This document shows positions 12,046 through 63,193 of a DNA stretch of 64,000 bases, piece after piece. The stretch is from an uncultured Candidatus Actinomarina sp. (GTDB lineage: Bacteria > Actinomycetota > Acidimicrobiia > Actinomarinales > Actinomarinaceae). Position numbers and translations under genes: made by a program. Position 1 is the first letter of the stretch. Each line of letters begins with the position of its first letter. The notes under the pieces are model-generated. The model saw only the letters and a program-made list of their open reading frames with translations. It had not been told where the DNA came from and ran no database searches. The stretch lies in NCBI GenBank assembly GCA_902593795.1, contig CACJJR010000001.1, positions 196,647 to 260,646 on the forward strand. Reading direction: 5' to 3'.

Positions 12046-13299
12046 ATGCTAGACCCTGCATTATTAAAAAATGATTTAGAAACTCTTAAATTAAATATTT
12101 CAAGAAGAAACTTAAATGTAGATATTGACTTTTTAATAAATCTAAATGAAGAAAGAAAAAAACTTAGATTTGAAGCTGAACAAAAGCGTTCTGAACAAAA
12201 AGAGATTGGGAAAGAAATTGCAACCGCTGATGATAAAAGTAAAGAAGGCCTATTAAGTCAGGCATCAAGTATAAGTAATGAAGTCAAAGCTTTATTTGAG
12301 AAAGTTGACCAAAAGGATGAAGAATTTTTTAATAATTGGGTTAAAATTCCAAATATTATTTCAGAAACATCTCCAGACGGAAAATCCGACAGTGATAATT
12401 TAGAAATTAAAAAAATTGGCAATATTAAGGAAATGAAAAATCCGAGAGATCATTTAGAAATTGCATCAAAATTAAACCTTATAGATGTAGAAAAGGCTTC
12501 TGAGGTATCAGGTTCTAGATTTGCATATTTATTTGGAGATTTAGTCAAAATTGAATTCAATCTTGTTTCGTGGGCTTTAAATAAGCTATCAGACAAAGGT
12601 TTTACTCCAACTGTCCCACCTGTATTGGTTCGAGAAAATGCGCTATATGGAACAGGTTTTTTTCCTGATGATGCCGAACAAGTATATGAAATTCCTAATG
12701 ATGATTTATTCCTTGTAGGCACTTCAGAAGTGCCTTTGGCTGCACTACATACAAATGAGATATTAAATATAAAAAATTTACCACTCAGATATGCAGGATT
12801 CTCTACATGTTTCAGGAGGGAAGCTGGCACATATGGAAAAGACACAACGGGTATCTTTAGAGTTCATCAGTTTGATAAAGTTGAGATGTTCTCCTTTTGT
12901 GACCCTGTAAAGTCTAAAGAAGAGCATGAGTTTATCCTTTCTGTAGAAGAAGAATTATTGCAGGCTTTAGAAATTCCCTACAGAGTAGTAGACGTATGTG
13001 CTGGAGATTTGGGCGCATCTGCTGCGAAGAAGTTTGATATCGAAGCTTGGATTCCAAGTCAAAATACATACAGAGAAGTTACATCTTGTTCAAACACTAC
13101 AGACTATCAAGCAAGAAGGCTGAACATAAGGGCAAAAGATGAAGGTAGCACATCAGTTCTTCATACTTTAAACGGTACAGCAATTGCAGTTGGAAGGATA
13201 CTAATTGCACTCATTGAGAATAATCAAAATACAGACGGGTCAGTTGTATTTTCTGATAAGGTAGCTGAAATAATAGGGGTCGAGCAGTTAGGCAAGTAA
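12046..13299 (+). CDS. serS: seryl-tRNA synthetase
   Basis: N-terminal coiled-coil arm plus class II core motifs (FRRE, GLDTxxxF-like, GSALAVGRxLxA). Confidence 0.9.
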   Translation: MLDPALLKNDLETLKLNISRRNLNVDIDFLINLNEERKKLRFEAEQKRSEQKEIGKEIATADDKSKEGLLSQASSISNEVKALFEKVDQKDEEFFNNWVKIPNIISETSPDGKSDSDNLEIKKIGNIKEMKNPRDHLEIASKLNLIDVEKASEVSGSRFAYLFGDLVKIEFNLVSWALNKLSDKGFTPTVPPVLVRENALYGTGFFPDDAEQVYEIPNDDLFLVGTSEVPLAALHTNEILNIKNLPLRYAGFSTCFRREAGTYGKDTTGIFRVHQFDKVEMFSFCDPVKSKEEHEFILSVEEELLQALEIPYRVVDVCAGDLGASAAKKFDIEAWIPSQNTYREVTSCSNTTDYQARRLNIRAKDEGSTSVLHTLNGTAIAVGRILIALIENNQNTDGSVVFSDKVAEIIGVEQLGK

Positions 13300-13839: not shown

Positions 13840-13870
13840 TGTTATATATTAGATAGATAAATTATTAATG

Positions 13871-13959
13871 CGGAGGGGGTGGGATTTGAACTCAGGGAGT
13901 CTATAGAGACTCACGACATTTCGAGTGTCGCGCACTAGACCGGACTATGCGACCCCTCC
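13871..13959 (-). tRNA. tRNA-Ser (anticodon CGA)
   Basis: Reverse complement: GGAGGGG acceptor, anticodon loop CTCGAAA, long variable arm, TTCAAAT T-loop. Confidence 0.8.
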
Positions 13960-13979
13960 AGATGTGTATTATTAACATT

Positions 13980-14438
13980 ATGGATTATAAGACTGATGAA
14001 AAAAAGATGAAAGTTGCGCTTGAACAAGCAAATTTAGCTTTTGATAAAAACGAGGTACCTGTTGGCGCAGCAATATTTGATAGCAACAATAATTTGATTT
14101 GTGCAAATCATAATCGTAGAGAAGTTGATAATAACCCAACAGCTCATGCTGAAATACTCGTATTGCAAGAGGCAGCACAAATATTAGGTAGTTGGCGGCT
14201 TGAAAACACAACACTTGCAGTTACGTTGGAACCAGATGCGATGTGTGCTGGTGCAATAGTCATTGCAAGAATAAAGAAACTTATATACGGGGCAGCTAAT
14301 TTAAAAGCCGGTGCAGCATATTCACTTTACAATATTCCACAAGATGCTCGTCTTAACCACCATGTCGATATAAAAGATAATATTCTCTCCCATGAATCCG
14401 AAGCTATATTATCCTCTTTCTTTGACAGCAAGAGATAA
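13980..14438 (+). CDS. tadA: tRNA-specific adenosine-34 deaminase
   Basis: CDA-fold HAE zinc motif and (P-D-A-M-C-A-G-A) second motif; start moved to first ATG clear of the tRNA. Confidence 0.8.
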   Translation: MDYKTDEKKMKVALEQANLAFDKNEVPVGAAIFDSNNNLICANHNRREVDNNPTAHAEILVLQEAAQILGSWRLENTTLAVTLEPDAMCAGAIVIARIKKLIYGAANLKAGAAYSLYNIPQDARLNHHVDIKDNILSHESEAILSSFFDSKR

Positions 14439-14464
14439 CTAAAATAGAATCTCAGGTTTTTTTC

Positions 14465-14553
14465 GGAGGGATCGCATAGTCTGGCCTAGTGCGCACGCTT
14501 GGAAAGCGTGTAAGGGTTTATCCCCTTCGAGGGTTCGAATCCCTCTCCCTCCG
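14465..14553 (+). tRNA. tRNA-Ser (anticodon GGA)
   Basis: GGAGGGA acceptor, anticodon loop TTGGAAA, long variable arm, GAGGG/CCCTC T-stem. Confidence 0.85.
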
Positions 14554-14574
14554 CAAAAAAAAAAGAAGACATCT

Positions 14575-14660
14575 GGAGGGATGGCCGAGCGGACGAAGGC
14601 GATAGTCTTGAAAACTATTGTATGTATTCCATACCGTGGGTTCGAATCCCACTCCCTCCG
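14575..14660 (+). tRNA. tRNA-Ser (anticodon TGA)
   Basis: GGAGGGA acceptor, anticodon loop CTTGAAA, long variable arm. Confidence 0.85.
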
Positions 14661-14667
14661 CTGACTT

Positions 14668-14757
14668 GGAGAGGTGACTGAGTGGCCTAAAGTGCTCGCC
14701 TGCTAAGCGAGTGGGGAAGAAATTCCCTCGAGGGTTCGAATCCCTCCCTCTCCGCCA
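14668..14757 (+). tRNA. tRNA-Ser (anticodon GCT)
   Basis: GGAGAGG acceptor, anticodon loop CTGCTAA, long variable arm, CCA encoded. Confidence 0.85.
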
Positions 14758-14758
14758 T

Positions 14759-14832
14759 GCGCCTGTAGCTTAACTGGATAGAGCATCTGATTACGGATCA
14801 GAAGGTTGGGGGTTCGACTCCCTCCAGGCGTG
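14759..14832 (+). tRNA. tRNA-Arg (anticodon ACG)
   Basis: GCGCCTG acceptor, anticodon loop TTACGGA, 5-nt variable loop; begins 1 nt after the previous tRNA. Confidence 0.85.
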
Positions 14833-14843
14833 CTTATAATCTT

Positions 14844-30831: not shown

Positions 30832-31026
30832 TTAAGCAGTTTCTTGGAGAATTCTGCCTCTTACCCTTGGGTATTTCACTGGAGCGTGATTGAAGCAATG
30901 ATCTCTTTTGTTGTAAATACTAAGTTGAGTGCTGCAAGATTCATCTTTGCATACTCTGCCCTGGTCAAAACTTTTTGATGGCCTAATACCACCTTTAATT
31001 TGACTAGCTTTTAATCCGTCTGTCAT
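30832..31026 (-). CDS. small CCCH zinc-ribbon-like protein (paralog of 54245..54448), unknown family
   Basis: 64 aa; C-x4-C-x12-C-x2-H, shared HAPV.YPRVRG C-terminus and ASQ.K.G.R.SK N-terminus with the dnaK-upstream paralog. Confidence 0.5.
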   Translation of the reverse strand: MTDGLKASQIKGGIRPSKSFDQGRVCKDESCSTQLSIYNKRDHCFNHAPVKYPRVRGRILQETA

Positions 31027-31091: not shown

Positions 31092-32990
31092 TTATTTTGA
31101 CAAGTTTTTTTGAGACAAAAATGCTTTATCATTCCATTTCCTGCCCAAAAAATTTTTTACCATATATTCTGCAGGTATAGTCCCTCCAGGCTTGAGAATT
31201 TTGTCTTTATATTCAACCCCAACTTTATTTGAAAGAACTCCCTCATTTTCGAACCTACTAAATAGATCATCACCAATAATTTCAGCCCAGATATAACCAT
31301 AATAGGCTGCATCATAGCCACCGAGAAGATGTCCAAATGCTGCTAAGTGGTTTATGTCGTCAGGATAAGCTATGGTAGTTACTTTTTGAGAAGTTTGCTC
31401 AACTTCAATTAGTGAATCGTTAAAGTTTTCACCATGTAAGTGTTGGTCAGCTAGGCCAAATGAAACTTGACGAAGTGTGAGTAAGCTGACACCGATATTT
31501 TTTGATTTATTTAATTTTGCACATATCTGCTCAGATAATGATTCCCCAGTTTCAATATGTTTTGATATTCTTGTTAAGCACTCTACTTTCCATACCCAGT
31601 GTTCCATAATCTGACTGGGTGCTTCAACAAAATCCCATTCACAGTTTGCACCAACAAATCTTGTGTATTTTGATTTACCAATTCCATTATGTAAAACATG
31701 ACCAAATTCGTGAAAAAGAGTTTCAACTTCGTCAAAGGTCATTAATCCATCTCCTGTATTTGGGTTTGGAAAGTTTGCAACCATTGAACATACGGGAAGC
31801 TCCTGTCTTTCTGTTCCACCGGAAGATATATCAAAGACTGCTGCATGTGTAAATTTTCCATCTCTTGGATGAAGGTCTAAATAAAAATAAGCTAATTGTG
31901 GACCATCTTTTTCCCATAGTGACCAAAGTTCTACATCATCATGCCAAGCATTATGGTTTGATTCACGCTTTATTTTTAAATCAAAAACTTCTTCACAGAC
32001 TTTAAACATTTCATTTTTAACATCATGAATATAAAAATATTTTTTTAACTCGCTATTTTCAACGTTGCTTACTTTGGCTCTTTCTGCCGAAACAAAGTAT
32101 CTAATATCCCATGGAGCAATGTCATTAATTTTAATATTATCTATGACAAGCTCATTCTTTTCTTTATCTGCAGCTTTTTGTAATTTTGGAATTAACTCTT
32201 CATACATGGATGAAACATTTGACGGTCCTTTGGCCATTCTATTTTGCAATCTATATTCTGACCATGTATTAAAACCAAACAAATTTGCTTTTTCATTTCT
32301 CAATACCACCGCTTCTTCAAGAATTGGACTGTTTTCTTTAACGGATCGATTATTAAAGGCTTTCCAAACAACTTCTCTTGTTTTTCGCACAGAACAGTTT
32401 TCTGAAACTGCATTTATATCAGGGTAAGCCATTGTTATAACAAAGTTGCTTCCTTCTTTTCTAAGATTTTGAAGTTCGTTTTGACTCAATCCCTTTAGCT
32501 CATTTTCTAAAAACATAAGTTCAGTTTTATCTTTCGCTATATTTTCTGAGAAGGAAATCCCTAATTCAATAAGTTTCTTTTCAATTTCTGTGAGGCGTTC
32601 TTTTTTTTCTGCTGATAGTCCATGACCAGCATCTTTAAAATCTAGTCCTAAATCCTTATGAAATGAAAGATCTTCTTCATCTAAATTTAAAATATCAATA
32701 TCATTGTATTTTTCATAAAGACCTGAATCGTTGAATATTTCAAGTGCAAAATTTTGAATTTTGGAATCTGCTTCGTTACCAAAATCTCTGATTTTTTCAT
32801 CTGGGTGCACATCTCCAAGAAACGCGACTCTTCCAGAAAGATCATAAATCATACTTTCCATATCATTAAAATTATTTAATTTAACTTCTGATGATGCCTT
32901 AAGATCTTTAATTAACTCTTTACATTCAGAAATAGTATTATCTAAATCTTTTCGTAAACTTTCTACTGTTACGTCTGAATAGTTAAACAC
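31092..32990 (-). CDS. M3-family zinc metallopeptidase (oligopeptidase/Dcp-like)
   Basis: HEFGHVLH HExxH motif with downstream Glu, ~630 aa. Confidence 0.8.
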   Translation of the reverse strand: MFNYSDVTVESLRKDLDNTISECKELIKDLKASSEVKLNNFNDMESMIYDLSGRVAFLGDVHPDEKIRDFGNEADSKIQNFALEIFNDSGLYEKYNDIDILNLDEEDLSFHKDLGLDFKDAGHGLSAEKKERLTEIEKKLIELGISFSENIAKDKTELMFLENELKGLSQNELQNLRKEGSNFVITMAYPDINAVSENCSVRKTREVVWKAFNNRSVKENSPILEEAVVLRNEKANLFGFNTWSEYRLQNRMAKGPSNVSSMYEELIPKLQKAADKEKNELVIDNIKINDIAPWDIRYFVSAERAKVSNVENSELKKYFYIHDVKNEMFKVCEEVFDLKIKRESNHNAWHDDVELWSLWEKDGPQLAYFYLDLHPRDGKFTHAAVFDISSGGTERQELPVCSMVANFPNPNTGDGLMTFDEVETLFHEFGHVLHNGIGKSKYTRFVGANCEWDFVEAPSQIMEHWVWKVECLTRISKHIETGESLSEQICAKLNKSKNIGVSLLTLRQVSFGLADQHLHGENFNDSLIEVEQTSQKVTTIAYPDDINHLAAFGHLLGGYDAAYYGYIWAEIIGDDLFSRFENEGVLSNKVGVEYKDKILKPGGTIPAEYMVKNFLGRKWNDKAFLSQKNLSK

Positions 32991-33027
32991 TCAACTCCTT
33001 TAACTTTTTATATGATACTATTTAGTT

Positions 33028-33264
33028 ATGGAAATCAAACTTGAATTTTGTGTAGTTTGAAACTACACACCTCGTGCAGTTGGCACGATTGAAGACGTTT
33101 TAGAAATATATGGAAATAAAGTTACTTCTATTAATTTGATTCCAAGCGGTGGTGGAGTATTTGAATTTCATTTAAATGAAAAATTATTATTTTCAAAAAA
33201 AGAACTTGGAAGACACTCTGATGATGGAGAAATACTAAAACTAATCGAAGAAGAAGTTGGTTGA
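33028..33264 (+). CDS. selW: SelW-like (Rdx family) selenoprotein, in-frame UGA=Sec at 33058..33060
   Basis: MEIKLEFCVV-U-NYTPRAVG: CxxU redox motif; downstream LIPSGGGVFEF...FSKKELGRH matches bacterial SelW-like PGSGG.FE..WSKK..GRFP; 67 stop-free codons after the TGA. Confidence 0.8.
33072..33088 (+). promoter_or_regulatory. bacterial SECIS-like hairpin for the SelW-like gene
   Basis: 17-nt stem-loop tCGTGC-AGTTG-GCACGa beginning exactly 11 nt after UGA, GU in apical loop; fits the E. coli fdhF minimal SECIS geometry. Confidence 0.55.
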
Positions 33265-33995
33265 GTTTTCCATTTGATTTAACTTTTATAGAAGTAACTT
33301 TTATTGCAATATTACTTTTTATCAGCTCCTCAGTTCAAGGTGTTCTAGGTTTTGGCTTTGCGGTCATTGCTTCACCAATCATCATCCAAATCGAGCCTTA
33401 TCTTGTCCCCCAGTTGCTTTCTTTATTGGGATTGCCATTGGCAATTAGAGTTTTTTACAGAGAAAAAGACCAAGTTGACTTTTCTAAGGTTAAGCCACTT
33501 ATATTAGGTCGACTAATAGGCGGACCAATTGGACTTTTATTTCTGTTGAATCTACCTCAAAGATATCTTTCAATCTCTGTAGGTTTTATAGTATTTATAG
33601 CTGGCGTAGGCTCTTTTTTTGGTTGGGTCATAAATAGGAATAATGTAAATTCTTTTTTAGCAGGAACTTTTTCTGGTATTTTTGGAATGATTGCTGCAAT
33701 TGGGGGTCCCCCAGTTGCTTTACTATATAGAAATACCAAATCGCAAGAATTCAGACCATCACTAAACAGTGTATTTAGTATAGGAATTTTAATTACGCTA
33801 TCACTTTTAATCTTTAGCGGTAACTTATTATTGGACCATATAATACTTTTTCTTCTATTCATTCCATTTGTATTGGCCGGAATTAGATTTTCTAGTTCTC
33901 TTTTTTCCAAAGTATCTGATAACTTTATTGCGCAGTCAGTAACTTATTTTTCAATTATTTCTGGTCTTTATGTTATTTTGAGAAACATAAATTAG
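33261..33995 (+). CDS. TSUP/TauE-SafE (DUF81) family membrane transporter
   Basis: Two-repeat 4TM architecture with GxGxxxxP motifs (VLGFGFAVIASP; IAAIGGPPVALL); start overlaps SelW-like stop (GTTGA). Confidence 0.7.
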   Translation: MSFPFDLTFIEVTFIAILLFISSSVQGVLGFGFAVIASPIIIQIEPYLVPQLLSLLGLPLAIRVFYREKDQVDFSKVKPLILGRLIGGPIGLLFLLNLPQRYLSISVGFIVFIAGVGSFFGWVINRNNVNSFLAGTFSGIFGMIAAIGGPPVALLYRNTKSQEFRPSLNSVFSIGILITLSLLIFSGNLLLDHIILFLLFIPFVLAGIRFSSSLFSKVSDNFIAQSVTYFSIISGLYVILRNIN

Positions 33996-54613: not shown

Positions 54614-55408
54614 ATGGAAAAATTAGATATTCACATAGTTGGTTTGGGTAATTTAGGATCTGCATTCTTAAAAGGTTTAAATAATGTAGAAGATATCAAC
54701 TTGTTTTTATACGATGATTTAGAATCTGTTAGAAATTCTGTTAACAATGAATTTTCTATTATTCCTAAAGACTCAATAATTTCTATTCAAAATGGAGTTG
54801 TTATTCTTTGTATTAAACCTCAAAATATAAATAATTTTTTTGCAAATAACAAAAATAAAATAAGTCCAGATGTTTTAATTTGTTCCCCTGTTGCTGGGCT
54901 AGAAATCAAAACAATTGAGAGCTTTATGGGAAATAAAGTTCTCCGAATAATGCCTAACTTGCTTATCGGCAACAACAAAGGCTTCATTCCGTATGTTTCA
55001 AATTATGATGGAGATTATTTCACTTTTAATGAGAATGTCTTGGAGAAACTTGGTGTTACAAAAGAATTTGACGAGGACATGTTTCCACTTATCACAGCTT
55101 TATCGGGAAGTGGTCCTGCCTGGTACTATGAGTTATCAAGTCAGTTGGTTAACTCTGGCCAAGAATTAGGACTTAGCTTAGATGATTCCGAAATGATAAT
55201 TAAAGAACTCATAAAAGCTCTTCCAGCATTGGTTGCAGAAGACATTTCATTTAAAGATTTAGTCAATAAAGTAAAGTCACCTAATGGGACAACTGAGGCA
55301 GGCCTCAATTCGCTTAATAATGATTCATTTGATAGAATAATTCACGATGCTATTCAAAAAGCAACTCATAAATCTACTGAAATATCAAGAGAACTAAGTA
55401 GTGAATAA
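54614..55408 (+). CDS. pyrroline-5-carboxylate reductase-like NAD(P)-dependent oxidoreductase
   Basis: N-terminal Rossmann GxGxxG (VGLGNLGSAF) and ProC-like C-terminal dimerisation region. Confidence 0.55.
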   Translation: MEKLDIHIVGLGNLGSAFLKGLNNVEDINLFLYDDLESVRNSVNNEFSIIPKDSIISIQNGVVILCIKPQNINNFFANNKNKISPDVLICSPVAGLEIKTIESFMGNKVLRIMPNLLIGNNKGFIPYVSNYDGDYFTFNENVLEKLGVTKEFDEDMFPLITALSGSGPAWYYELSSQLVNSGQELGLSLDDSEMIIKELIKALPALVAEDISFKDLVNKVKSPNGTTEAGLNSLNNDSFDRIIHDAIQKATHKSTEISRELSSE

Positions 55409-57560
55409 GTTTTTAAACAAATATAAAGCAAATGATTACGTGCTTTTGTTTTCTGCAGGAGCAGCAGTAGGAACTCTTTTTTTGTGGGCGGCAAGCTATG
55501 TATTTCCAGAGGGTGAAATTGTAGGTGGAAGAAGAGTATTTGAAAATATTCCTAAAGTGCTTCAATACATATTTTATGTTCTAAGTGCTACAACAATTTA
55601 TATATCAGGTTATTTATTTTCTCTTAGAGTAAAAAACTGGACAAGAGGCAAAGAGGAGAAGCGAAATGTAAAGTTGTCACAGAGAATTTTCAATCTTTTT
55701 GATGGTTTAACTATGAGAACTGTACTTAGATTTAGAGCTGCCGGGTTAATGCACTCGCTTATTTATATTGGGTTCTTAGGTTTGTTTGCTGGGACTATTA
55801 CATTAGAGATTCATCACCTAATGCCACCTTCATTGAAGTTTCTACAGGGCACAACTTATATCGTATATTCATTTACCTTAGAGTTAGCTACTATTGCATA
55901 TTTAATAGGTCTTTTTTGGGCTTTAGCAAGACGTTTAATTGGTACTGAGTACAGAATTAAAACAAAAACAACAATAGATGATTATTTAACTCTTTCCTTA
56001 TTAATTTTTATTGGTATTTCAGGTATTACTACTGAAGCTGGAAGAATAGCCTTAGAAAACTTTCCAGATTATGAAAGATGGTCATTTATTGGATACGCTG
56101 TAGGTGAAATTTTAAATCTTTCAAACCCTGGTCTCTTTCATAGAATTTCATGGGTTCTGCACGTTGTATCATTTTTTGTTTTCCTAATTGCTATTCCATT
56201 ATCAAAGTTGAGACATATTTTTACATCACCAATAAATATGTTTATGTCTCCAAAAGATAGACCAAAAGGCGCAATGAAATTTATTGGAAATTTACTAGAG
56301 GCAGAAGATATAGATTCTGTTGGTGCTGGAATTGTTGACCACTTTACCTGGAAGCAATTAATGGATTTAGATGCCTGTACGGTTTGCGGTCGCTGTACTT
56401 CAGTATGTCCTGCTAATCAAACTGGTAAATCTTTAGATCCTAGAGAGATTATTTTAAAAGTTGGTCAAGTAATGTCTGAATCAGGAAAACCTGCTGTACC
56501 AGCTACTGTTTCAACACCGGGCCCCTTACGCGTTAATTCTGACAATGTATTTGAAAGAATAACTTCTGAAGAGCTATGGGCTTGCACCTCTTGCAAGGCA
56601 TGTGATGAGATTTGTCCTGTAAATATAGAAATTTTGGACAAGATATTGGATATGAGAAGGCATTTAGCTTTAATGGAATCGGACTTTCCTGCTGAGCTTG
56701 GTAAAGCATATGTTGCGATGGAGAACTCATCAAACCCTTGGGGAGCATCTCAAAACGATAGATTGAAATGGACTGAAGATCTGGACTTTGAAGTTCCCGT
56801 TATTGATGAAAAAAACCATGAAGAATATGATTATCTATATTGGATAGGATGCGCGGGGGCTTTTGACGATAGAAATGTTCCTGTAACAAAAGCAGTAGCC
56901 ACTCTTTTAAAGCGAGCCGGGGTTTCTTTTGCTGTACTTGGTCCTAAAGAAGTATGTACAGGAGATTCAGCAAGAAGAACCGGAAATGAATTTGTATTTC
57001 AACAATTAGCAATTCAAAATATCGAAAATATGAATAATCTAAAAGTAGATAAAATTATCACTCAATGCCCACACTGTTTTAATACAATAAAAAATGAGTA
57101 CCCACAATTAGGTGGTAATTATGAAGTAATTCATCATAGCCAATTATTAACTGAATTAGTACAGTCTGGAAGAATTGAAGTTGGAACAAGCGATAAGCCT
57201 TATAAGATAACTTATCATGATTCCTGCTACCTAGGCAGACATAATGATATTTATACTGCTCCACGAGAAATAGTAGGCTCTATTGGTGGAATTGAAATTC
57301 GTGAAATGAAGAGACAGGGAACACAAAGCTTCTGCTGTGGTGCCGGAGGTGGAAGAATGTGGATGGAAGAATCTGTAGGGAAAAAAGTCAATATTGAGAG
57401 ATCTCAGGAAGCTATTGAAACAGGTGCGGATGAAGTTGCAGTTGCTTGTCCTTTTTGTTACATAATGATGGATGATGGTGTTAAGGAATTGGGTTATGGC
57501 GACAATGTCAGAGTAAGAGACGTATCTTTAATTCTCTTAGATAATCTTAAGAAAGATTAA
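55401..57560 (+). CDS. membrane-anchored Fe-S oxidoreductase (HdrD/GlpC-like: 2x[4Fe-4S] + CCG domains)
   Basis: N-terminal ~6 TM, two ferredoxin motifs (CTVCGRCTSVCP; CTSCKACDEICP), two Cys-rich CCG domains (CCGAGGG). Confidence 0.75.
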   Translation: MNKFLNKYKANDYVLLFSAGAAVGTLFLWAASYVFPEGEIVGGRRVFENIPKVLQYIFYVLSATTIYISGYLFSLRVKNWTRGKEEKRNVKLSQRIFNLFDGLTMRTVLRFRAAGLMHSLIYIGFLGLFAGTITLEIHHLMPPSLKFLQGTTYIVYSFTLELATIAYLIGLFWALARRLIGTEYRIKTKTTIDDYLTLSLLIFIGISGITTEAGRIALENFPDYERWSFIGYAVGEILNLSNPGLFHRISWVLHVVSFFVFLIAIPLSKLRHIFTSPINMFMSPKDRPKGAMKFIGNLLEAEDIDSVGAGIVDHFTWKQLMDLDACTVCGRCTSVCPANQTGKSLDPREIILKVGQVMSESGKPAVPATVSTPGPLRVNSDNVFERITSEELWACTSCKACDEICPVNIEILDKILDMRRHLALMESDFPAELGKAYVAMENSSNPWGASQNDRLKWTEDLDFEVPVIDEKNHEEYDYLYWIGCAGAFDDRNVPVTKAVATLLKRAGVSFAVLGPKEVCTGDSARRTGNEFVFQQLAIQNIENMNNLKVDKIITQCPHCFNTIKNEYPQLGGNYEVIHHSQLLTELVQSGRIEVGTSDKPYKITYHDSCYLGRHNDIYTAPREIVGSIGGIEIREMKRQGTQSFCCGAGGGRMWMEESVGKKVNIERSQEAIETGADEVAVACPFCYIMMDDGVKELGYGDNVRVRDVSLILLDNLKKD

Positions 57561-57874
57561 AAATTTCGACCCATAAAAAATTTTTGAATATTTCCATCTG
57601 AATTTCTAATACTGTAAATTATGTATAAGGCAATAGTAAAACTTCCCATTATCATAACAAAAAAAGTCCAAAGAGCTGCTGGTATTACATTTTCTTTATA
57701 AAATATCCAAATACTAAACAATATAAATCCTGAATAAAGATCAACTAAGGAAACAATACCCCATGGCATTCCTGCAATAGGCGAGTCAAAAATTGACACT
57801 TCACCCTGAGCCCAAATAATTACTCCTGCCATAGAAACAGTTATAAAGTATGAAATAAGTTTTGTTATAGTCAT
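57557..57874 (-). CDS. small polytopic membrane protein
   Basis: Start set to internal Met (MTITK) to avoid overlap with divergent gene; 105 aa, 3-4 TM. Confidence 0.35.
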   Translation of the reverse strand: MTITKLISYFITVSMAGVIIWAQGEVSIFDSPIAGMPWGIVSLVDLYSGFILFSIWIFYKENVIPAALWTFFVMIMGSFTIALYIIYSIRNSDGNIQKFFMGRNF

Positions 57875-57906
57875 AAGATAGATTTTAAATAAGGAAAAAA
57901 TAAATA

Positions 57907-58524
57907 ATGAGTGAAAGACAAATATTCTCCAAAATCTTACGTCTTGATAAATATATATACAATGAGCTGATTGTCCTTGACGGAGCTTTACAAAGAGGAA
58001 TAGCAATTTTCTTGGCCGTTACAACTTTAACTACCTTGAGTGCTTTTAGACTTTTTAATAGCTTAATTGAATTCCTTGAGAGCAATCTTGTTTTGTTTAG
58101 TGGTGAAATGTCTGACGAAGAGTTTGCAATGTTTAAAGCCTTGATTGATGAACTTTCTATAATTTTTATTCAACAAGACTCTACCACTACACTACTCTTC
58201 TCATCAATAGCTTCAACAACAGTTACTTCTCTGATAGGTCTTGTTATTTGCTTTTTAATTCTTAAATTTTTGTTTAGAAAAGAACCCAGGCCAATTGATT
58301 TAATTATTATTTCGTTCTTTTCAAGCGCTCCTGGTTTACTTGTATTTCCAGTTCTTTTTATTTCAGATACCTTTATTCAAGCAATATTAGTACTAGTGAC
58401 TTCTTTATACGCTCTTGTTGCTTTTGGATCTGGACTTAAGCAGGTTTATTTATTAAGAAACATTGAAGTAATTTTGGTAATAATAGCTCTTACTTTTGGC
58501 GGTTCAATACTGGGAGGATTTTGA
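57907..58524 (+). CDS. polytopic membrane protein (Yip1-like topology)
   Basis: 205 aa, cytoplasmic N-term then ~5 TM. Confidence 0.35.
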   Translation: MSERQIFSKILRLDKYIYNELIVLDGALQRGIAIFLAVTTLTTLSAFRLFNSLIEFLESNLVLFSGEMSDEEFAMFKALIDELSIIFIQQDSTTTLLFSSIASTTVTSLIGLVICFLILKFLFRKEPRPIDLIIISFFSSAPGLLVFPVLFISDTFIQAILVLVTSLYALVAFGSGLKQVYLLRNIEVILVIIALTFGGSILGGF

Positions 58525-59123
58525 TTATGAACGCAGCAGTTATACTTGCGGCTGGTGATTCAAGCAGAATGGGCTTCCCAAAACAGCTAGCAGAAGTAAA
58601 AGAGAAATCTTTACTACAACTAATTATTGATAAAGTTAATAATAAATTTGAATATTCTTCTGTTGTTTTAGGCTCAGAAAATGAAGTTATTTCAGAAAAA
58701 GTTGATTTTAAAAATTCAAACATCTTGATAAATGAAAACTGGTCAGAGGGCATTACATCTTCTATTAGGACATCATTGTTCTTTTATCAAGGTCAAAAAG
58801 AAATCGATAATGTAATATTTTTTCTTGCTGATCAACCAGAGGTAGAAAGTGAAGTTATAGATAGCCTGATAAATGATCATCATGATGGTACAAAAATTTT
58901 AATTCCACAATATAGATACAAATTAGGATTTCCTATTTTAGTTCCAAGATTATTTTGGCCAAAGCTAGAACTTATAACACAAGACGATGATGTGGATGAA
59001 GAAAAATCTGTTTTTCAGGATTTTGATTTAATCGATTTCTTTATTTCATCAGAAACTGAAACTAAAAATTTAAATTTTAATTTTTTAGAGCCAATCGATT
59101 ATGACGAAGAAAAAGATTTTTAA
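58521..59123 (+). CDS. MobA/MocA-like molybdopterin nucleotidyltransferase-family protein
   Basis: ILAAGDSSRMG..K N-terminal NTP-transferase motif, NENWSEGITSS, FFLADQP. Confidence 0.65.
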   Translation: MIMNAAVILAAGDSSRMGFPKQLAEVKEKSLLQLIIDKVNNKFEYSSVVLGSENEVISEKVDFKNSNILINENWSEGITSSIRTSLFFYQGQKEIDNVIFFLADQPEVESEVIDSLINDHHDGTKILIPQYRYKLGFPILVPRLFWPKLELITQDDDVDEEKSVFQDFDLIDFFISSETETKNLNFNFLEPIDYDEEKDF

Positions 59124-59186
59124 GAGTGGGAAAAACTCTTAAAAAAAATCGTTTGTTTATCTAAATTATTTTGTAAAATTTAAAAC

Positions 59187-59591
59187 ATGAATTCAATTGA
59201 CTCTATAAATGGTATGACACATACCGAAGCAACAAAATTAAGAAGAGCTAGAGTCAGAACAACAACTACTTTCTTACAGATCGCATCTTCCAGGTCTGGT
59301 AGGGCACTACTTACAAAAGAAACCGGTATAAGCTCCCCAAAACTTTTACACTGGGCAAGAAGAGCAGAATTAATGAAGATTAAAAATCTTGGAAGAGATT
59401 ACGCAGACTTACTTGAAGCAGCTGGTGTAGAAAGTGTGTCTGAGTTAAAACGTAGAAACCCTGAATCTCTTCATGAAATGATGGCAAAGATTAATTTAAA
59501 AAGAAATATTGTGGACAGGATGCCTTCTTTAAAAAGAGTATCAAAGTGGATTGACGATTCTAAAGATATAGAAATTAAGGTTTCTTCATAA
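59187..59591 (+). CDS. hypothetical protein, DUF4332-like (tandem helix-hairpin-helix-like repeats)
   Basis: 134 aa with two LL.AAGV.S...L-type repeats. Confidence 0.4.
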   Translation: MNSIDSINGMTHTEATKLRRARVRTTTTFLQIASSRSGRALLTKETGISSPKLLHWARRAELMKIKNLGRDYADLLEAAGVESVSELKRRNPESLHEMMAKINLKRNIVDRMPSLKRVSKWIDDSKDIEIKVSS

Positions 59592-62164: not shown

Positions 62165-63193
62165 GTGAGACTTACAGAGTATTCTCATGGCTCTGGTTGA
62201 GCATGTAAACTCTCCCAAGGAGAGCTTGCTCAGGTTCTGAAGCAATTACAACAAAATAATCACAACAATTCTGAAATTTTAGTTGGACTAGATAACCCTG
62301 ATGATGGCGCAGTTATTGATTTGGGAAATAATTTAAAAATAGTTCAAACTGTAGATTTTTTTACACCTATCCTTGATGACCCTTATGACTGGGGTAGAGT
62401 TGCTGCTGCGAATGCATTGTCTGACATATACGCCATGGGTGGAGTGCCTATTTCTTCACTTCAGTTAGTAAGTTGGCCAAGAGATGAGATAGGATTTGAT
62501 ATCTTATCAAGAGTTATTAATGGCGGTTCAGATGTGATGAAATCAGCAAAGTGCAGTATTGTAGGCGGGCATAGTATTGATGATAAAGAGCCAAAATATG
62601 GCTTTGCTGTGACAGGGATAATTAATGAAAAAATATATAAAAAAACTGAAATTAAAAAAGGTGATAGACTCTTTTTGACCAAACCACTTGGCTCAGGAAT
62701 AATTGCGACAGCAATCAAAAAAGGTAAAGCTGAAAAAGAAGCTATAAGTCAAGTTACAGAGATTATGACAACATTAAATGATAGAGGTTTAGCAGTAGCC
62801 AATAATCTAAATGCCAACGCTGTTACAGATGTCACAGGCTTTGGACTTCTTGGGCATTTAAGTGAAATGTTGATTAATGATAATTTGTCAGCAAATTTAA
62901 TCTTTAACGACATTCCAATAATTGAGTATGCAAAAAAATATTTTGAGGAGGGAATTTATCCGTCTGGCAGTCAAAGAAATTTTAATACTTTGAAGGATTC
63001 CATAACATTTGAAAATGAAGACGAAGCATTACTATTATCTGATGCTCAAACTAGTGGAGGTCTTTTAATTGCTGCCCCTAAGGAAACAAATGTAGATTTT
63101 AGCGACATTGAAAAATCACATGGAGTAATAATAAAAGAAATTGGGAATATAACTGATAGATATAATAAAAAAATAAATATTATTAGTAATTGA
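62165..63193 (+). CDS. selD: selenophosphate synthetase (selenide, water dikinase), Sec-containing; UGA=Sec at 62198..62200
   Basis: GTG start 10 nt after AAGGAGGG RBS; RLTEYSHGSG-U-ACK aligns with E. coli RLTQYSHGAGCGCK (Sec at Cys17 position); downstream DFFTPILDDPYDWGRVAAANALSDIYAMGG matches SelD core. Confidence 0.85.
62207..62227 (+). promoter_or_regulatory. candidate SECIS hairpin for selD
   Basis: CTCTCC-CAA-GGAGAG stem-loop (extendable by 2 bp) starting 9 nt after UGA. Confidence 0.4.

Follow-up and report, generated by a model that had tools for sequence, protein, structure and literature searches.

Within a 64,000-nucleotide stretch of DNA from an uncultured Candidatus Actinomarina sp. 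(positions 196,647 to 260,646 of contig CACJJR010000001.1; hereafter the window), positions 33028–33264 of the forward strand very probably encode a SelW-like selenoprotein of the Rdx family, 78 residues long and with selenocysteine (Sec) predicted at codon 11. The initial annotation had proposed a hidden gene for such a protein in this apparently intergenic region, and the proposal is borne out by matches to the Rdx and TIGR02174 profiles, by a TGA at the same position in 80 of 80 related loci, by a hairpin of the Sec insertion sequence (SECIS) type downstream of that TGA, and by a Sec-containing selD gene in the same window.

Bacterial SelW-like selenoproteins carrying a CxxU motif were described from the Sargasso Sea and Global Ocean Sampling (GOS) metagenomes, and have ranked first in abundance among marine selenoprotein families since 2005 (PMC1088965, PMC2398784). 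In the GOS data, where they were again the most abundant, 427 Sec forms were counted versus 56 Cys forms. The function of the bacterial SelW-like proteins is unclear (PMC1088965).

Gene structure and protein family

The gene (33028–33264, + strand; 78 codons plus stop) opens with an ATG at 33028–33030, followed by nine codons, the TGA at 33058–33060 that constitutes codon 11, 67 sense codons and a second TGA at 33262–33264. This second TGA is the true stop and lies inside a four-nucleotide overlap (TTGA) which also holds the TTG start of the next gene. With U written for the first TGA, the translation is MEIKLEFCVV-U-NYTPRAVGTIEDVLEIYGNKVTSINLIPSGGGVFEFHLNEKLLFSKKELGRHSDDGEILKLIEEEVG, ending at the stop, and the tryptic peptide that spans the Sec is LEFCVVUNYTPR, with Sec at position 7. 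The gap in which the gene lies, between an M3 peptidase gene (31092–32990, − strand) and a TauE/TSUP gene (33261–33995, + strand), measures exactly 270 bp, and mechanical open reading frame (ORF) calling finds there only a 42-aa fragment, from a TTG at 33136 to 33264. The size of the gap, the 78-aa sequence obtained by reading through the TGA and the count of 67 stop-free codons after it are all as first annotated, though the openness of the frame carries little weight by itself: stops account for 6.5% of the window's triplets, the chance probability of 67 stop-free codons is ~0.011, and a mechanical screen of the uncovered window DNA returned nine ORFs of at least 45 codons that contain one TGA. 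The case for a SelW-like gene therefore rests on homology and conservation.

Family profiles were searched with U written as C. The protein matched Pfam Rdx (PF10262) with E=2.6e-15 and 56.8 bits (gathering cutoff 22.6) over profile positions 2–73 of 74, and TIGR02174 (CXXU_selWTH, the SelT/SelW/SelH family) with E=9e-12 and 45.1 bits (cutoff 34.2) over positions 1–73 of 74, both matches being full length and above their cutoffs. The top NCBIfam model was NF041051 SelTWH_Campy (75.4 bits, E=3.1e-21, positions 1–69 of 70), an equivalog for a SelT/SelW/SelH family (seleno)protein, an identity which we rejected. As this score falls under the equivalog cutoff of 88, only the broad assignment to TIGR02174/PF10262 is justified.

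Searched by sequence, the PDB yielded Cys-type bacterial SelW-related proteins (2fa8, 3dex, 2ojl, 2p0g and 2obk). The redox motif C8-V-V-U11 (TGT GTA GTT TGA, 33049–33060, + strand) aligned on their CxxC motif, which is C-T-Q-C in 2fa8, 3dex and 2ojl, with the TGA on the second Cys. An AlphaFold2 model, built from the 84-aa database entry P0001, which has W at residue 11, reached a pLDDT of 85.6 and contained the elements E2-8, H14-31, E34-40, E45-49, E52-56 and H68-82, that is, the β1-α1-β2-β3-β4-α2 topology of Rdx proteins, with the redox motif at the β1/α1 junction. When this model was compared with the PDB using Foldseek, the top 21 matches were all bacterial SelW-related proteins (TM 0.80–0.84, rmsd 1.2–1.5 Å), followed by MIEN1, mouse SelW and then thioredoxins. 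From sequence and model together, a small thioredoxin-like product is predicted, with Cys8-x-x-Sec11 at the start of helix 1.

Conservation of the in-frame TGA

In order to compare the locus across genomes, we scanned one genome per species, which gave 566 relatives, and kept the best 80. The TGA was found at the CxxU position in all of these 80 loci, comprising 27/27 from Actinomarina/OCS155 and 53/53 from other genomes (Marinimicrobia/Fidelibacterota, Gemmatimonadota, Chloroflexota, Firmicutes and other Actinomycetota). The motif C-x-x-TGA is common to the whole set, and neither frameshifts nor other disruption of the frame were seen in it. Of the two outcomes that the initial annotation had named as refuting, a lack of significant profile matches and a disrupted frame at orthologous loci, neither was observed. 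Among the Actinomarina loci, protein identity was 84–94% in 19 of the 27 genomes and 63–71% in the other eight.

The 27 Actinomarina loci hold 24 distinct alleles, in every one of which the ATG, the TGA at codon 11 and the TGA at codon 79 are invariant. Pairwise comparison of codons 1–10 among these alleles gave 687 synonymous versus 109 nonsynonymous codon differences, with synonymous variation at, for example, Leu5 (CTT/TTA/CTA), Cys8 (TGT/TGC) and Val10 (GTT/GTC), and coding-type conservation was present on both sides of the Sec TGA. The five codons that follow the second TGA, which lie inside the TSUP gene in another frame, showed no protein-level conservation. Because codons 1–10 vary mostly synonymously and the tail past the second TGA is unconserved, the segment 5′ of the first TGA appears to be translated in frame together with the 3′ part. 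Two variants at residue 19, G19 and S19, were seen among the Actinomarina loci; in the S19 clade the peptide downstream of the Sec position is AVSTIEDILEIYGNK.

A SECIS-type hairpin downstream of the TGA

The RNA downstream of the UGA can fold into the hairpin UCGUGC-AGUUG-GCACGA (33072–33088, + strand), with stems at 33072–33077 and 33083–33088 and a loop at 33078–33082. The hairpin is 17 nt long and begins 11 nt after the UGA, the distance from UGA to loop is 17 nt, and the loop, AGUUG, has G at position 2. In bacterial SECIS elements the apical loop lies 16–37 nt from the UGA (PMC10778597) and has a G at loop position 1 or 2 (PMC13582414; PMC1088965), so that both the distance and the loop G of the 33072–33088 hairpin fall within the published description. 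Its folding energy is −7.7 kcal/mol (z = −4.17), and none of 200 shuffled sequences was as stable. No hairpin follows the second TGA at 33262–33264.

Pairing of the hairpin was 100% across 14 distinct Actinomarina sequences, and the loop bases AGUU were invariant. The closing pair was UA in nine of these sequences, CG in four and GC in one, a synonymous third-position change in a Pro codon offsetting an Ile/Leu/Val change on the other side. In the other phyla the hairpin lies 4 nt further downstream and has four pairs with double changes; here 41 cells were changed on both sides, against a figure of 9.9 for shuffles, none of 500 shuffles matched the value observed, and the pairing collapses when the register is slid.

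Selenium machinery of the genome

The window holds another hidden selenoprotein gene, selD, which encodes selenophosphate synthetase and supplies the selenium donor for Sec synthesis. As called, the selD ORF spans 62321–63193 and matches TIGR00476 only from profile position 55. Extending the frame upstream reveals a GTG start at 62165, which follows an AAGGAGG ribosome-binding site and opens the sequence VRLTEYSHGSG-TGA-ACKLS, so that the complete gene would extend over 62165–63193 (+ strand), with the Sec TGA at 62198–62200 in the active site SHGSG-U-ACK. Read through this TGA, the protein covers TIGR00476 positions 1–309 of 311 with 379.7 bits (cutoff 125), compared with 317.5 bits for the truncated form. 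Folding of the RNA downstream of the selD UGA gave two SECIS candidates, a proximal hairpin at 62210–62224 (loop CAA) and a distal bulged hairpin at ~62226–62245 (loop with GGUU). The SelW-like gene and selD are the hidden selenoproteins of the window, as the other one-TGA ORFs in gaps look spurious.

All 84 complete Actinomarina genomes have been reported to carry selA, selC, selD and a divergent selB, with ~5 predicted selenoproteins per genome and selD in Sec form (preprint "Actinomarina, resolved", 10.64898/2026.04.03.716425). The same preprint, which defines selenoprotein families by their first 20 residues, lists among its predicted selenoproteins an "uncharacterized" family of 78 aa, which has two N-terminal variants. 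Since the length matches and the two variants match G19/S19, this family is very probably the SelW-like gene at 33028–33264.

No tRNA-Sec adjoins the SelW-like gene in the window or in 21 related loci. A compact tRNA cluster at 13870–14833 comprises four tRNA-Ser (CGA, GGA, TGA and GCT anticodons) and a tRNA-Arg, with no tRNA-Sec among them, and adjoins serS (12046–13299) and tadA (13947–14438). Upstream of selD, at 55401–59591 (+ strand), are four genes encoding a 719-aa Fe-S/CCG-domain oxidoreductase (with a weak 'diclust_near_Sec' match), a 205-aa ORF without matches, a MocA/YgfJ-like molybdenum cofactor cytidylyltransferase and a DUF4332 protein. Genes of the YgfJ type are sometimes linked to selenium-dependent molybdenum enzymes.

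Alternative explanations

Several points weigh against a SelW-like selenoprotein at this locus. Within Actinomarina, covariation of the hairpin amounts to one fully compensated pair and one G-C/G-U pair among closely related sequences, and, as the hairpin lies inside coding sequence, its conservation is partly a matter of protein-level constraint. The genes selA, selB and tRNA-Sec are absent from the 64-kb window, and the SelW-like gene has no conserved gene partner across phyla, none of the 52 downstream and 51 upstream neighbours of its non-Actinomarina homologues being shared with Actinomarina. Rfam returned no relevant RNA family, either at the gathering threshold over the whole window or at E<=10 over 32950–33350, where only chance snoRNA-like matches appeared; this null result was expected and is uninformative, because Rfam has no general bacterial SECIS model.

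Public databases contain entries (P0001–P0073, corresponding to 33028–33282 of the window) which are mostly 84 aa long and have Trp at both TGAs (...FCVVWNYT..., ...GWVFHLI), P0001 and P0057 being examples. Together with the AT-richness of the genome (33% GC), these would fit a TGA that is a sense codon throughout the genome or in this gene, Trp as in code 4 or Gly as in code 25, in which case the product would be an ordinary 84-aa protein without selenium. Against this, code-11 ORFs tile 93% of the window, nine of the 58 long ORFs end in TGA and Trp is encoded by 213 TGG codons, whereas with TGA taken as sense the ORFs add up to 119% of the window length and many of them overlap. The residue aligned with the TGA in CxxC homologues is Cys, not Trp or Gly, the residues past the second TGA are unconserved as described above, and the organism is an actinobacterium. 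A reading in code 4 or 25 is thus effectively refuted and has a negligible chance of being right; the genome uses the standard code. The 84-aa entries come from short metagenome contigs and are code-4 mistranslations, a gene-caller artefact, and they document a conserved TGA down to 49% identity. Apart from them, public gene calls are truncated pieces only, P0083 and P0086 of 42 aa and P0074 of 58 aa ('hypothetical protein'), just as the ORF list of the window gives 33136–33264 alone, which is what one would expect if a Cys codon (TGT or TGC) had mutated to TGA in a decaying pseudogene, or if only the 42-aa C-terminal ORF were made. We regard this as extremely unlikely, given a TGA kept without frameshifts in 80/80 loci from five or more phyla and purifying selection on the ten codons upstream of it, including the ATG and Cys8. 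No orthologue was seen with disrupted N-terminal codons and an intact C-terminal ORF, and the 42-aa fragment would lack strand β1, the redox motif and helix α1, scoring 23.9 bits with TIGR02174, below the cutoff of 34.2.

It is also conceivable that the UGA is read through without any Sec machinery, by near-cognate Trp or Cys decoding or by another form of programmed read-through, to give a CxxW or CxxC protein, and the description of SelB as divergent in the genus (10.64898/2026.04.03.716425) could be taken in its favour. We judge this very unlikely, for a hairpin of bacterial SECIS geometry with a compensatory change is located exactly where SelB needs one, the same genome has a Sec-type selD, and the protein belongs to a classic Sec/Cys family in which the GOS counts are dominated by Sec forms. 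Moreover, if Cys were needed, one step to TGT or TGC would secure it far more efficiently, yet not one of the 80 loci has taken that step. Lastly, the region lies directly upstream of the TSUP gene, overlaps its start and holds a stable hairpin, as a regulatory leader or small RNA might, the ORF then being fortuitous. A non-coding region is refuted by the protein homology and the fold match, and the codon-periodic pattern of substitutions, the lack of an Rfam match and the homologues found in other phyla without a TSUP neighbour also speak against it, leaving it a vanishingly small probability. The SelW-like selenoprotein thus remains the reading that we adopt.

Transcription and linkage to the TSUP gene

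A putative extended −10 element, TG-A-TACTAT (TGnTAnnnT; 33013–33021, + strand), lies upstream of the SelW-like gene, its end 7 nt short of the ATG. The sequence TGATA[C/G]TAT recurs with unchanged spacing to the ATG in 26 of the 27 Actinomarina loci, whether the M3 peptidase gene is present or absent. A generic scan for sigma-70 promoters and terminators returned nothing convincing for the SelW-like gene and did not call this element, which was found by comparison of orthologues. Because it lies 7 nt from the ATG, with no Shine-Dalgarno sequence in between, its position suggests that the SelW-like mRNA is leaderless or near-leaderless. Leaderless mRNAs are common in Actinobacteria.

The downstream gene (33261–33995, + strand) encodes a membrane transporter of the TauE/SafE (TSUP) family, with a TTG start and a complete match to PF01925 (E=1.4e-19). 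In all 27 Actinomarina loci the gene order is selW-TSUP-lnt, the SelW-like stop and the TSUP start overlap by 4 nt (TTGA), and the TSUP start lies at +203 nt from the Sec TGA. This TTG start is preceded only by a weak purine-rich stretch. The overlap of the stop with the TTG start makes it most likely that the SelW-like and TSUP genes of Actinomarina form one operon with coupled translation. The link is lineage-specific, as no TauE protein was found among the 52 downstream and 51 upstream neighbours of the non-Actinomarina homologues, and we found no link between TauE/TSUP and selenium in the literature.

A Sec-containing N-terminal extension of the TSUP gene itself was considered and rejected for this locus, since upstream in frame there are a tandem TGA TGA and several further stops, and the TauE match is already complete. 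This has a bearing on the group K07090, which we take to denote a TauE/TSUP-type uncharacterized membrane protein. A predicted selenoprotein group 'matching K07090' was reported in 49 genomes, the predictions having been mapped by same-strand overlap (10.64898/2026.04.03.716425). Given such mapping, the 4-nt overlap between the SelW-like and TSUP genes and a TSUP ORF without room for a Sec codon, we speculate that this group may reflect the SelW-like gene itself, mismapped.

The surroundings of the locus vary between lineages. The M3 peptidase gene (31092–32990) is present in the window and in loci L001–L020 and absent from one Actinomarina clade (L021–L027), in which the SelW-like gene is immediately preceded by a 64-aa ORF and a copper-type P-type ATPase, the order selW-TSUP-lnt being unchanged. 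In the window this 64-aa ORF is found at 30832–31026 (− strand). It has no Pfam or NCBIfam match, is 89–100% identical at the protein level in 25 of the 27 Actinomarina loci (those that extend far enough upstream), and invariably has the P-type ATPase on one side and the selW region on the other, whether or not the M3 peptidase is there too, which makes it an unusually conserved small protein. The Marinimicrobia/Fidelibacterota loci (L028–L073) have a different lineage-specific conserved neighbourhood, with a ~745-aa FecR-domain protein upstream on the same strand in 20 loci and, often, an ORF of ~255–275 aa without a Pfam match that follows and overlaps the SelW-like gene.

Proposed mechanism

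According to the mechanism that we propose, the hairpin 11 nt past UGA-11 (loop AGUUG) would recruit SelB-GTP-Sec-tRNA(Sec), and Sec would be inserted at UGA-11 instead of termination. At the second UGA (33262), where no hairpin follows, translation would end. We infer by analogy that the SelW-like product acts as a thiol-dependent redox protein, in which the Cys8/Sec11 pair would cycle between the selenolate/thiol and the selenenylsulfide forms.

Comparison with known systems

The Actinomarina protein resembles the marine SelW-like selenoproteins (PF10262, formerly PF05169; TIGR02174) in its domain, its length (~75–85 aa), its CxxU motif and its origin in marine surface water, as well as in the small hairpin that comes straight after the in-frame UGA and carries a G in its apical loop. 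It differs from them in being assigned to a named lineage. Compared with the homologues of other phyla, the hairpin of Actinomarina lies 4 nt closer to the UGA, which places the loop G at +22 rather than +26, and the gene is joined by the TTGA overlap to a TauE/TSUP gene.

Structures are available for Cys-type SelW-related proteins, namely Atu0228 (2FA8), SAV_2001 (3DEX), Bordetella Q7WAF1 (2OJL) and proteins from Vibrio cholerae (2P0G) and Pseudomonas (2OBK, 2OKA). These have the same fold as that predicted for the Actinomarina protein and share with it the blocks (E/Y)C-x-x-C/U-N/R-(W/Y)-x-x-RA and (I/L)PS-x-GG-x-FE, but carry CxxC instead of CxxU, are ~100–108 aa long as deposited and have a sequence identity of 16–24%. 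Mouse SelW (2NPB), also a selenoprotein, and MIEN1 (2LJK), which represent the eukaryotic Rdx family, likewise have a thioredoxin-like Rdx fold with the CxxU/CxxC motif at the same position, and are much more distant from the Actinomarina protein (TM 0.65–0.68, rmsd 2.5–3.6 Å).

In the fdhF SECIS of E. coli, the paradigm of a bacterial Sec insertion element, the minimal functional part is a 17-nt upper stem-loop that lies 11 nt after the UGA, with G23 and U24 of the loop contacting SelB. The Actinomarina hairpin is likewise small, lies inside the ORF shortly 3′ of the UGA, exposes a G and a U in a loop of 4–5 nt, and has the same length of 17 nt and the same distance of 11 nt from the UGA, its loop bases being G22/U23. 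Unlike the fdhF SECIS, it lacks a bulged U and a long lower stem, its stem sequence is different and the SelB of the lineage is reported to be divergent. In eukaryotes, SECIS elements reside in the 3′ untranslated region and not directly after the UGA (PMC10778597).

Implications for Actinomarina and the SelW-like family

Standard callers miss the SelW-like gene, cut it down to 42–58 aa or mistranslate it into 84 aa with two false Trp residues. The label given by JGI to truncated fragments of it is "selenoprotein W-related protein". The 58-aa entry P0074 is attributed to Flavobacteriaceae bacterium TMED206, a taxonomic label which seems to be at odds with the close genomic matches, all of them from Actinomarina.

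The SelW-like family and its marine abundance were already known, as were the use of Sec and a 78-aa predicted selenoprotein in the genus (10.64898/2026.04.03.716425). What we add is modest and consists of the family assignment, a SECIS with compensatory support, the shifted register of the hairpin relative to other phyla and an overlap with the TSUP gene that does not vary. This provides a concrete putative SECIS (17 nt, 11 nt after the UGA, loop AGUUG) for a lineage with a reportedly divergent SelB.

In 27/27 loci the TSUP gene has a weak TTG start within the TTGA overlap and nothing but a weak purine-rich stretch ahead of it, which raises the idea that its translation may depend on the decoding of UGA-11. 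Coupling would then be gated by selenium: TSUP translation may need ribosomes that have decoded UGA-11 as Sec, and the SelW-like gene would be both a redox protein and a sensor of selenium availability that tunes the transporter. We put this forward as an unlikely possibility; if it were true, the transporter under such control may be one for anions resembling sulfite or selenite. A milder proposal is that the SelW-like gene of Actinomarina, a very abundant picoplankter, may account for much of the dominance of SelW-like proteins in surface-ocean metagenomes.

The analysis brings no new mechanism and adds one well-supported member to a known family. In doing so, it places in a named family the predicted selenoprotein that is the commonest of those left "uncharacterized" in Actinomarina, which is among the most abundant bacteria of the surface ocean.

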